Made by a program: the position numbers and the translations under genes | NCBI RefSeq assembly: GCF_016026235.1 | Contig: NZ_CP065613.1 | DNA: 64,000 nt | From: Escherichia coli | Lineage (GTDB): Bacteria; Pseudomonadota; Gammaproteobacteria; Enterobacterales; Enterobacteriaceae | Strand: one strand, 5' to 3' | Shown here: one piece after another, positions 27,798-30,618 of the stretch | Layout: every line of letters starts with the position of its first letter | How positions within the stretch are numbered: position 1 is the first letter of the stretch | The notes under the pieces: model-generated | What the model saw: the letters and a program-made list of their open reading frames with translations, nothing else | Told to the model about the DNA's origin: nothing | Databases searched by the model: none

Positions 27798-28035
27798 TTA
27801 TTATACTAAGCCTGAGCTCGGCATCCATCTAATTAGCTATATTGAATGACTGCACGACCGCGAATTCCGCCACTCAGAAGTTTTTCAGCCACAGTGATGG
27901 CGTCACTGAGCGGATAAACGGTAGTGAGACTATCCATTCTGGACTCTGGCAAATACTATACCGCCTGTTGCCAGATTGCTGCTCTTTTCTCTTTCGCGAA
28001 CATGACGCTATCAATCCCTTTCAGTGGATTTGCCC

Positions 28036-28941
28036 CTATATTTCCAGACATCTGTTATCACTTAACCCATTACAAGCCCGCTGCCGCAGATATTCCCGTG
28101 GCGAGCGATAACCCAGCGCACTATGCGGATGCCATTCGTTATAATGCTCGAACGCCTCTGCAAGGTTCTTTGCTGCCGTTAACCCGTCTGGTTTGGGCAT
28201 GATACTGATGTAGTCACGCTTTATCGTTTTCACGAAGCTCTCTGCTATTCCGTTACTCTCCGGACTCCGCACCGCCGTGTTCTTCGGTTCAAGTCCCAAC
28301 ATCCGGGCGAACTGGCGTGTTTCATTAGCCCGGTAGCATGAACCATTATCCGTCAGCCACTCCACTGGAGACGACGGAAGATCGTTGCCGAAGCGGCGTT
28401 CCACCGCTCCCAGCATGACGTCCTGTACTGTTTCACTGTTGAAGCCGCCGGTAGTCACCGCCCAGTGCAGTGCCTCACGATCACAGCAGTCCAGCGCGAA
28501 CGTGACACGCAGTCTCTCTCCGTTATCACAGCAGAACTCGAACCCGTCAGAGCACCATCGCTGATTGCTTTCTTTCACGGCCACTCTGCCTGTATGTGCC
28601 CGTTTCGATGGCGGTACAGCAGGTTTTCGCTCAAGCAACAGCGCATTCTGGCGCATGATCCGGTAAACACGTTTGGCATTGATCGCAGGCATACCATCAA
28701 GTTCTGCCTGTCTGCGAAGCAGCGCCCATACCCGACGATAACCATACGTGGGCAGCTCTCCGATAACATGGTGTATACGGAGAAGCACATCCGTATCATC
28801 AGTGTGACGACTGCGGCGGCCATCCATCCAGTCATCGGTTCGTCTGAGAATGACGTGCAACTGCGCACGCGACACCCGGAGACAACGGCTGACTAAGCTT
28901 ACTCCCCATCCCCGGGCAATAAGGGCGCGTGCGCTATCCAC
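28036..28941 (-). CDS. insD: IS2 InsD (301 aa)
   Basis: [34 protein letters not shown]... Confidence 0.9.
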
Positions 28942-29264
28942 TTTTTTGCCCGTCCATATTCAACGGCTTCTTTGAGGAGTTCATTTTCCATCGTTTTCTT
29001 GCCGAGCAGGCGCTGGAGTTCTTTAATCTGCTTCATGGCGGCAGCAAGTTCAGAGGCAGGAACAACCTGTTCTCCGGCGGCCACAGCAGTAAGACTTCCT
29101 TCCTGGTATTGCTTACGCCAGAGAAATAACTGGCTGGCTGCTACACCATGTTGCCGGGCAACGAGGGAGACCGTCATCCCCGGTTCAAAGCTCTGCTGAA
29201 CAATTGCGATCTTTTCCTGTGTGGTACGCCGTCTGCGTTTCTCCGGCCCTAAGACATCAATCAT
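28899..29264 (-). CDS. insC: IS2 InsC (121 aa)
   Basis: [40 protein letters not shown]... Confidence 0.9.
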
Positions 29265-30618
29265 CTGTACTCCAATGACTAGTCTAAAAACTAGTATTAA
29301 GACTATCACTTATTTAAGTGATACTGGTTGTCTGGAGATTCAGGGGGCCAGTCTATTCAGCGTGACACCACGCAGAATAAACGGAGCCATATTGCCCATC
29401 AAATCCATCCCCTGAGCCATGCCGCAGGCTGCAACAATACTGCCATATCGGACCCCGGCGCAGGCATTTCTCCAGTAACAGGGGGTTGTATTGTATTTTA
29501 TTGTGCCGGTTCAGGTGTGCGTTTCCCGGCGCGTCAGCACCGGCTTAACCAAATTCAACAGGGATAAAATAGTGCAAATAACCGAAGTATTACTTGCAGA
29601 ATCGGGGGAAGCATCCGGGGTTTTATTCAACAGGCTGTAGATCACTGACTGCGTCTGTTGGCCGTCCACTTCACGCGTCATTCGACCAGAGTAAATATTG
29701 ATGATTACTAGATTCGTGTATTTTATCAGGCATTTTACTTGCGAATAAATCCCCTTGCTATCCAGCGAAACCACACAGGTAGCTATTACCATATGTGGTA
29801 ATACACTAGTTACAGGAAAAATATGCAAGTTCCGCAATACGTTGTGTGTTGCTCCTTAGCCAGGATCTTTTCTTCCATGCGAGATATGACAACAATTTTG
29901 AGGAAGGATGTTCGTAACTGGTAGAGTTACTACAACAAGCATGGGAGGCTCTGACTCTGACAGACATTGTACTGTGGAATGTTGTTACAGGTTGGGGCGG
30001 CAACCGTGCCAGGAGACCATGAGCCGTTCACGGCATTAAAGGCCACACTTCAGTCGTTTACATTCCCTATGGTGGCAGGCATCTTCCATTAAGGCGTCAG
30101 AGCGTTACCAACGTTATGTTGTCATGGCTCATCTTTCATAGTCGATGCTTATCTGGTGGCTGAAGCTAGCCGCAGATAAAGAGTGTGAAGTTGATACCAT
30201 GGAGTGGAGTGACGTACAGGCAGGAGATTCGCTCTATGCAGGGTTGTGAGATGAATTCAAACCGGCTGGCAGCGCCAGTGATATTCGAAGATTCGTCCGG
30301 TTGTTACCCAGTATGCATTAAAAACCCAGACATTATGGACAATATAACGGCTTCTACAACAAGGAAGTGCCTGTTTACCATCCGGGTGTAATGACTCACC
30401 TTTGTGGGCTTTTGCCCGTCGCGCTCTTAACGTTGAAGACATTCTCTGCCTGCCGATTCAGGACTGCGACAAAAGCCATATCTGGCTACTGGTCAAGGAT
30501 GACCAGCGTCTGGAGTAGGTGATAAGCCAAATAGATAAGCTGGAATATGTGGTGAAAGTGCAACGTAATCAGTCCAACCCGACGATGTTTAACAAGATTG
30601 TGGTGTTTTTTCAGTAAG

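Follow-up and report, generated by a model that had tools for sequence, protein, structure and literature searches.

Does the IS2 copy that lies between acuR and deoQ in the 64-kb stretch of Escherichia coli DNA analyzed here (the window) mark the knockout of a working oxidoreductase gene, or did it settle in a gene that was already lost? We are highly confident that IS2 inserted in the last 99 codons of an acuI gene that was already dead and that had once formed a convergent cassette with acuR. The features concerned, in window coordinates, are as follows.

27119-27775, plus strand: acuR (TetR family), intact; matches the NCBIfam AcuR equivalog model (NF051457) at 267.3 bits, cut-off 247
27833-28024, minus strand: 3' piece of the acuI/yhdH-type remnant, codons ~265-327 (tblastn match to residues 265-325)
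28020-28024: left copy of the target-site duplication TTCAG, read from the sequence; a single copy stands at the empty site of strain SK1144
28025-29355, minus strand: complete IS2 (IS3 family), 1331 bp, with its IRR end at 28025 and its IRL end at 29355
28036-28941, minus strand: insD (orfB), 301 aa, translation identical to K-12 InsD1
28899-29264, minus strand: insC (orfA), 121 aa, translation identical to K-12 InsC1
29356-29360: right copy of TTCAG, read from the sequence
29361-29468, minus strand: 5' piece of the acuI/yhdH-type remnant, codons 229-264 (tblastn match to residues 229-266)
29469-29574: island-backbone segment of 106 bp that begins exactly at the truncation point
29607-30086, plus strand: frameshifted remnant of a hypothetical-protein gene (tblastn match in three frames, residues 12-168)
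30377-30617, plus strand: pseudogene of ilvN that keeps the final 242 of 291 bp, at 90.5% DNA identity to nt 50-291 of K-12 ilvN
30619-31404, minus strand: deoQ, a DeoR-family regulator gene (open reading frame list; PGAP annotation of identical loci)

The boundaries of the element can be read directly from the sequence: at the left junction the flank ends in GCTATCAATCCCTTTCAG and is followed by TGGATTTGCCCC, which opens IS2 at 28025, and GGGGGCCAGTCTA closes the element at 29355. When aligned, the two ends form terminal inverted repeats that are imperfect and measure about 41 and 42 bp; orfA and orfB overlap, and the slippery A6G motif where the −1 frameshift of IS2 takes place is found at 28941-28947. 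Annotated IS2 copies in other E. coli genomes, labeled "IS3-like element IS2 family transposase" (with the PGAP remark "programmed frameshift"), are 100% identical to the window copy over its full length. Compared to IS2A of K-12 (NC_000913.3, 381260-382590), which lies in the yaiX pseudogene, the window copy is identical at 1,326 of 1,331 positions (99.6%); the two elements share their length, InsC and InsD, the A6G site, imperfect inverted repeats and a 5-bp duplication, and differ in five substitutions, all of them silent for InsC and InsD, and in their site of insertion. A preliminary description, made from the letters alone, had announced an exact 1331-bp IS2 with TTCAG flanks, and this is what we find: exact in length and ends, near-exact in comparison with K-12. 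With all sequence requirements intact, the window IS2 looks competent for transposition. Such elements are common: 4,853 of the 5,426 complete E. coli genomes contain IS2-like sequence. A search of the 64-kb window found no second copy.

Once IS2 and one TTCAG are removed, the minus strand of the flanking remnant reads in one frame, and the translation of its 99 codons can be laid gap-free along residues 229-327 of Enterobacter proteins that are intact at 327 aa, with 90-91% identity. At the nucleotide level, too, the remnant follows nt 685-984 of the Enterobacter gene, with 87.7% identity over 300 nt and no gap. A search with the 99-aa remnant alone led to other fragments, and the intact proteins were reached after repairing a frameshifted, near-full-length relative; with the latter as query, 327-aa homologues were found in Enterobacter, Pectobacterium, Klebsiella variicola, and Dickeya, where they are named acrylyl-CoA reductase (NADPH) or MDR family oxidoreductase. 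In agreement with these names, the NCBIfam acrylyl-CoA reductase AcuI model (NF051456) matches the remnant with E = 1.8e-31 over profile positions 227-323 of 325, and the NCBIfam YhdH subfamily model (TIGR02823) does so with E = 3.5e-24, whereas Pfam gave no match on the 112-aa reconstructed fragment. The preliminary description had seen a likeness to the C-terminal region of YhdH-type proteins and had suggested comparing the reconstructed sequence with an intact homologue; the likeness holds in both the profiles and the pairwise identity, and the comparison was positive, with AcuI-type proteins as matches. Its limits for the remnant, 27956-29510, have to be corrected to 27833-29468. On one side, it had the C terminus ending early, and a stop is indeed present at 27956, the codon at 27956-27958 being an in-frame TAG instead of the CAG or AAG of relatives, but homology in the same frame runs on to the natural stop at 27833-27835, whose first base, 27833, is the 3' limit. 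On the other side, it had the match lost upstream of about 29510; homology does stop, but it does so at 29468.

As an enzyme gene, this remnant falls far short of its relatives. Its AcuI score is 109 bits against the curated 440 bits, residues 1-228 are absent, and its frame is interrupted both by the TAG and by IS2 at codons 265/266; in comparison with the genes of its nearest intact homologues, the 327-aa AcuI/YhdH enzymes of Enterobacter, Pectobacterium, and K. variicola, it keeps the last 30%, with a stop codon inside and split by the insertion. The remnant is a gene fragment with AcuI/YhdH homology that is unable to encode an enzyme.

What this fragment once belonged to is indicated by its left neighbor. 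The intact acuR gene lies tail to tail with the remnant across a spacer of 57 bp. The corresponding Enterobacter pair, in prophage-like DNA, consists of an intact acuI gene for a 327-aa protein and a convergent TetR gene, with a spacer of 51 bp, and the window acuR is 86% identical to that TetR partner. The score above the equivalog cut-off, together with the convergent acuI pairing, suggests that the window gene is a true AcuR family member, and the same convergent layout in Enterobacter implies that the ancestral unit was an acuI-acuR cassette. Of this unit, acuR survives as an orphan regulator after the loss of acuI; it has remained intact, and hundreds of genomes conserve it.

The order of events can be read from genomes that carry the same locus without the element. 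In SK1144 (locus L001), the two IS flanks are contiguous and their alignments overlap by exactly 5 bp, corresponding to a single TTCAG. To extend this comparison, we used a 485-bp probe of the pre-insertion sequence (27780-28024 joined to 29361-29600, at least 80% coverage) on 5,426 complete E. coli genomes; the probe was uninterrupted in 590 of them, at 100% identity in LR-33. The IS-free loci of SK1144, LR-33, and AVS0343 have the window's breakpoint and TAG, lack IS2 at this site, and have the same neighbors, with genes for a BCCT protein and a DUF2254 protein plus acuR on one side and the ilvN fragment (ilvN') plus deoQKPX on the other. A probe for the left junction found a single further genome with the insertion, FDAARGOS_943, which carries both IS2 junctions. 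Its IS2 has been split by later, nested elements (ISSso6, IS66-family elements including ISSfl3, IS21, and IS600), leaving 749 bp on the IRR side and 252 bp on the IRL side. The insertion is thus a lineage marker common only to the window and FDAARGOS_943 among the 5,426 genomes.

These empty sites weigh directly on how the insertion should be understood. The island is rich in insertion sequences and is rearranged elsewhere, for instance, with ISSso6 at the nhaA joint, so that IS2 might have been thought to mark a recombination joint or an IS-mediated deletion, with the 5-bp match of its flanks a coincidence (the chance of which is about 1/1024). However, the flanks adjoin in IS-free genomes with an overlap of exactly TTCAG, and the uninterrupted site in 590 genomes, which is stronger evidence for a simple insertion than the 5-bp identity, leaves the probability of that view at virtually nil. 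As IS2 makes 5-bp target duplications, this is a textbook simple insertion, as the preliminary description had proposed and the exact empty sites in other genomes confirm; both element and event are already known, and nothing about them is new in kind. Could it nevertheless have been the primary inactivating mutation, knocking out a working oxidoreductase gene? The frame that it interrupts is annotated by PGAP elsewhere as an "alcohol dehydrogenase" coding sequence, but that sequence is a piece of 35 codons ending at the TAG, the sole annotated product of the remnant in IS-free genomes, and all IS-free genomes examined lack codons 1-228 and carry the same TAG, the 590 genomes with the empty site having the same truncated remnant. 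In addition, tblastn with the repaired full-length homologue found nothing of residues 1-228 in 29361-30700 or in the whole 64-kb window, which is also free of any ADH_N or Rossmann part of acuI. The breakpoint at 29468|29469, where no IS end is found now, is a genuine truncation joint, since another fragment of this gene, on plasmid pE92-2, covers residues 142-254 with 98.7% DNA identity in the overlap and continues past it. Because truncation and TAG also occur in genomes with an empty site, both predate IS2, and a knockout by IS2 becomes barely credible. The acuI gene was already dead when IS2 arrived, last and in one lineage; what had been suspected as probable decay before the insertion is now documented by both lesions in IS-free genomes. 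We also consider it highly improbable that the dead gene was some other medium-chain dehydrogenase outside the AcuI/YhdH group, such as a zinc alcohol dehydrogenase. The PGAP product name and the missing Pfam match would fit such an origin, but the best profiles are the AcuI equivalog and the YhdH subfamily, the identity to full-length proteins named acrylyl-CoA reductase (NADPH) is 90-91%, and the remnant adjoins an AcuR equivalog in the layout of intact acuI-acuR pairs.

If the target was dead acuI, the element might still matter for what lies beside it. IS2 is known to change the expression of adjacent genes elsewhere, and here its transposase reads toward acuR, whose 3' end is 250 bp away and which in antisense would be the only gene within reach of read-out from the element. 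One may therefore ask whether IS2 regulates its neighbors, by antisense read-out into acuR or by silencing or activating island genes, and is maintained for that purpose. We regard this as very unlikely. Among complete genomes, a single other one has the same insertion, and there nested ISs have destroyed the element; scans for promoter and terminator consensus sequences showed no enrichment, the numbers of hits being equal to or lower than those expected from shuffling; and transcription of the deo operon, which lies beyond deoQ, leads away from the IS, the operon's genes not being placed downstream of either IS end so as to come under IS control. An Rfam scan of 26800-31700 (E ≤ 0.1) returned no match. 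Most likely, the insertion is selectively neutral, with neither a polar nor an antisense effect on acuR, because its target encoded nothing usable. This is supported by the tolerance of the same stretch for other ISs in other strains, by the broken-up IS2 of FDAARGOS_943, and by the absence of any promoter- or terminator-like signal standing out and of any Rfam match. Being a known IS in already non-functional DNA, the insertion is of little biological importance. There is also an unlikely scenario in which the orphan acuR would remain responsive to acrylate or acryloyl-CoA and might regulate the adjacent BCCT and DUF2254 genes or cross-regulate the chromosomal yhdH, while the pseudogene stretch would serve as a tolerated landing zone for ISs whose outward transcription modulates acuR; if it were true, acuR would be more than debris.

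Returning to insertion into dead acuI as the preferred reading, with which none of the results conflicts, we propose the following history. An acuI-acuR cassette of the type that is intact in Enterobacter would have entered an E. coli genomic island, where a rearrangement would have deleted acuI codons 1-228, so that codon 229 (29468) came to abut the island backbone (29469 onward). The DNA joined in this way would already have held the decayed hypothetical gene, the 3' fragment of ilvN, and the deoQKPX operon. Before or after this truncation, a nonsense change would have produced the TAG at 27956-27958, and the last step was the insertion of IS2 between codons 265 and 266, with duplication of TTCAG, only in the lineage of the window and FDAARGOS_943.

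The right side of the locus is composed of further pieces. Copies of the 106-bp segment at 29469-29574, 98-99% identical, turn up in many other E. coli genomes, where they invariably begin at the base equivalent to 29469; in the genomes examined, zinc-ribbon/YfjJ-type island genes precede the segment, and an IS66-family element often comes next. The next 1.1 kb, 29511-30618, had been described as holding only short frame fragments; instead, two plus-strand pseudogenes can be recognized in it. One of them, at 29607-30086, is homologous to a 169-aa protein of O157:H7, with 66-68% DNA identity to intact copies, and a fragment of this gene is annotated elsewhere as "UCP030791 family putative phage-derived protein." The other is ilvN', annotated by PGAP as a pseudogene, which has one frameshift and one internal stop and whose hand-repaired translation scores 123.7 bits against the NCBIfam model PRK08178 (cut-off 128). 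Rather than a complete, open 96-codon gene downstream of ilvB, it comprises nt 50-291 only: homology to the K-12 ilvN locus begins inside ilvN, at 30377, and searches with K-12 IlvB (tblastn) and K-12 DNA (blastn) found no ilvB remnant upstream of it.

The stop codons of ilvN' and the convergent deoQ are one base apart, an adjacency that may exist in Salmonella as well, where DeoK is STM3793. Beyond deoQ, the deoxyribose operon continues with genes for a ribokinase-type protein, a fucP-type permease, and an epimerase. In E. coli, what lies to the left of the ilvN'-deoQKPX block differs between genomes, with several contexts seen, and this marks the block as a separate mosaic module. A deoK operon is carried on PAI II-AL862 of E. 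coli (PMC7545054), and a module of that type, with the same regulator, DeoK, permease, and epimerase, lies directly to the right in the window, untouched by IS2. Together, the remnants record the assembly of the island from modules: the acuR-acuI cassette, the island backbone, and ilvN'-deoQKPX.

This reading has consequences for annotation. The 35-aa "alcohol dehydrogenase" that pipelines call at this locus is a piece of the acuI pseudogene, and the "acetolactate synthase small subunit" call corresponds to the ilvN fragment. The acuI remnant is in fact already annotated as partial in public genomes, among them EAEC 042, where it appears as "putative alcohol dehydrogenase (partial)," and FDAARGOS_943, where PGAP lists the equivalent of 29358-29468 as a partial "oxidoreductase" missing both termini.

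Seventeen genomes with 100% query coverage had initially been taken to carry the same insertion as the window, but piecewise alignment placed their IS2 about 0.8 kb to the right, in the same orientation, at a site equivalent to window 30153-30157. The different site and its CTGGT duplication identify this as an independent IS2 event. The pseudogene stretch from acuI to deoQ thus contains IS2 at two sites in the collection, and in the adjoining acuR an IS100 lies within the 3' end of the gene in LR-33.

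The remnant of acuI, which encodes an acrylyl-CoA reductase, and the pseudogene stretch beside it are a repeated recipient of insertion sequences. Besides the IS2 copy at 28025-29355 of the window, an independent IS2 insertion is present in 17 complete genomes (RIVM_C... strains and others), in the same orientation and about 0.8 kb to the right within the same pseudogene stretch, at a site corresponding to window positions 30153-30157 (seen in comparison locus L002) and flanked by a CTGGT duplication. LR-33, a genome without the IS2 copy of the window, carries an IS100 at the 3' end of acuR; in many genomes an IS66-family element is found immediately past the position equivalent to 29574.

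The cassette formed by acuI and its TetR-family regulator gene acuR also occurs elsewhere, whole or in part. On plasmid pE92-2 (NZ_CP119736.1, 4003-4338; locus L019), a different fragment of the same acuI gene, covering residues 142-254, is truncated by an IS66 on one side and by an IS3-family element on the other, and the metagenome contigs P0002 and P0003 carry further independent truncations adjoining acuR; the acuI gene of this cassette appears to have decayed several times. The plasmid itself is of the ETEC type, with the gene for the heat-stable enterotoxin ST-II. In Enterobacter quasiroggenkampii (L021/L022, 7001-8692), an intact acuI-acuR pair sits amid lambda-like prophage genes (replication O/P, RusA, and antiterminator), which suggests that the pair travels as prophage cargo. 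In the window, acuR is an orphan regulator, since its partner acuI has been destroyed, and it closes a series of three consecutive genes:

23530-27775, plus strand: BCCT-family transporter (667 aa), DUF2254 membrane protein (430 aa), and intact AcuR equivalog

The 3' fragment of ilvN and the convergent deoQ, a DeoR-family regulator gene of the deoxyribose operon, have stop codons one base apart (30377-30621). In Salmonella, the deo locus presumably lies between uhpA and ilvN; if that order holds, the ilvN fragment would be a hitch-hiker from the deo donor locus. DeoK of S. Typhimurium is STM3793 (PMC13432705).

Further to the left, the island carries the following genes:

7023-22048: fecIRABCDE, then IS911/IS3 remnants, then the shf-capU-virK-lpxM (msbB2) cluster

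The same combination of Fec, VirK, and MsbB2 is given for leuX-associated islands (PMC7545054). The window contains no tRNA genes.

Core genes flank the island on both sides, and an insertion sequence and an additional open reading frame lie on the right:

1-4200: gntP, fimH, fimG, fimF, and fimD (C-terminal part only)
about 35800-37490: ISSso6 (IS110 family), directly upstream of nhaA, at the joint
within 35000-64000: nhaA, nhaR, ribF, ileS, ispH, dapB, carAB, and caiT-F
40782-41468: 228-aa ORF with Usher and PapC_C domains, between nhaR and ribF

In K-12, the fim genes are at about 4.54 Mb and nhaA at about 17 kb, with thr, dnaK, and others in between; because the two core flanks are distant from each other in that genome, the window contains the joint of a large rearrangement or deletion. 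The 228-aa ORF matches only the C-terminal end of fimbrial ushers and is probably another truncated gene. ISSso6 likewise stands beside nhaA in FDAARGOS_943, the sole one of 5,426 complete E. coli genomes to share the IS2 insertion of the window, and in EIEC-type strains, e.g., CFSAN029787.
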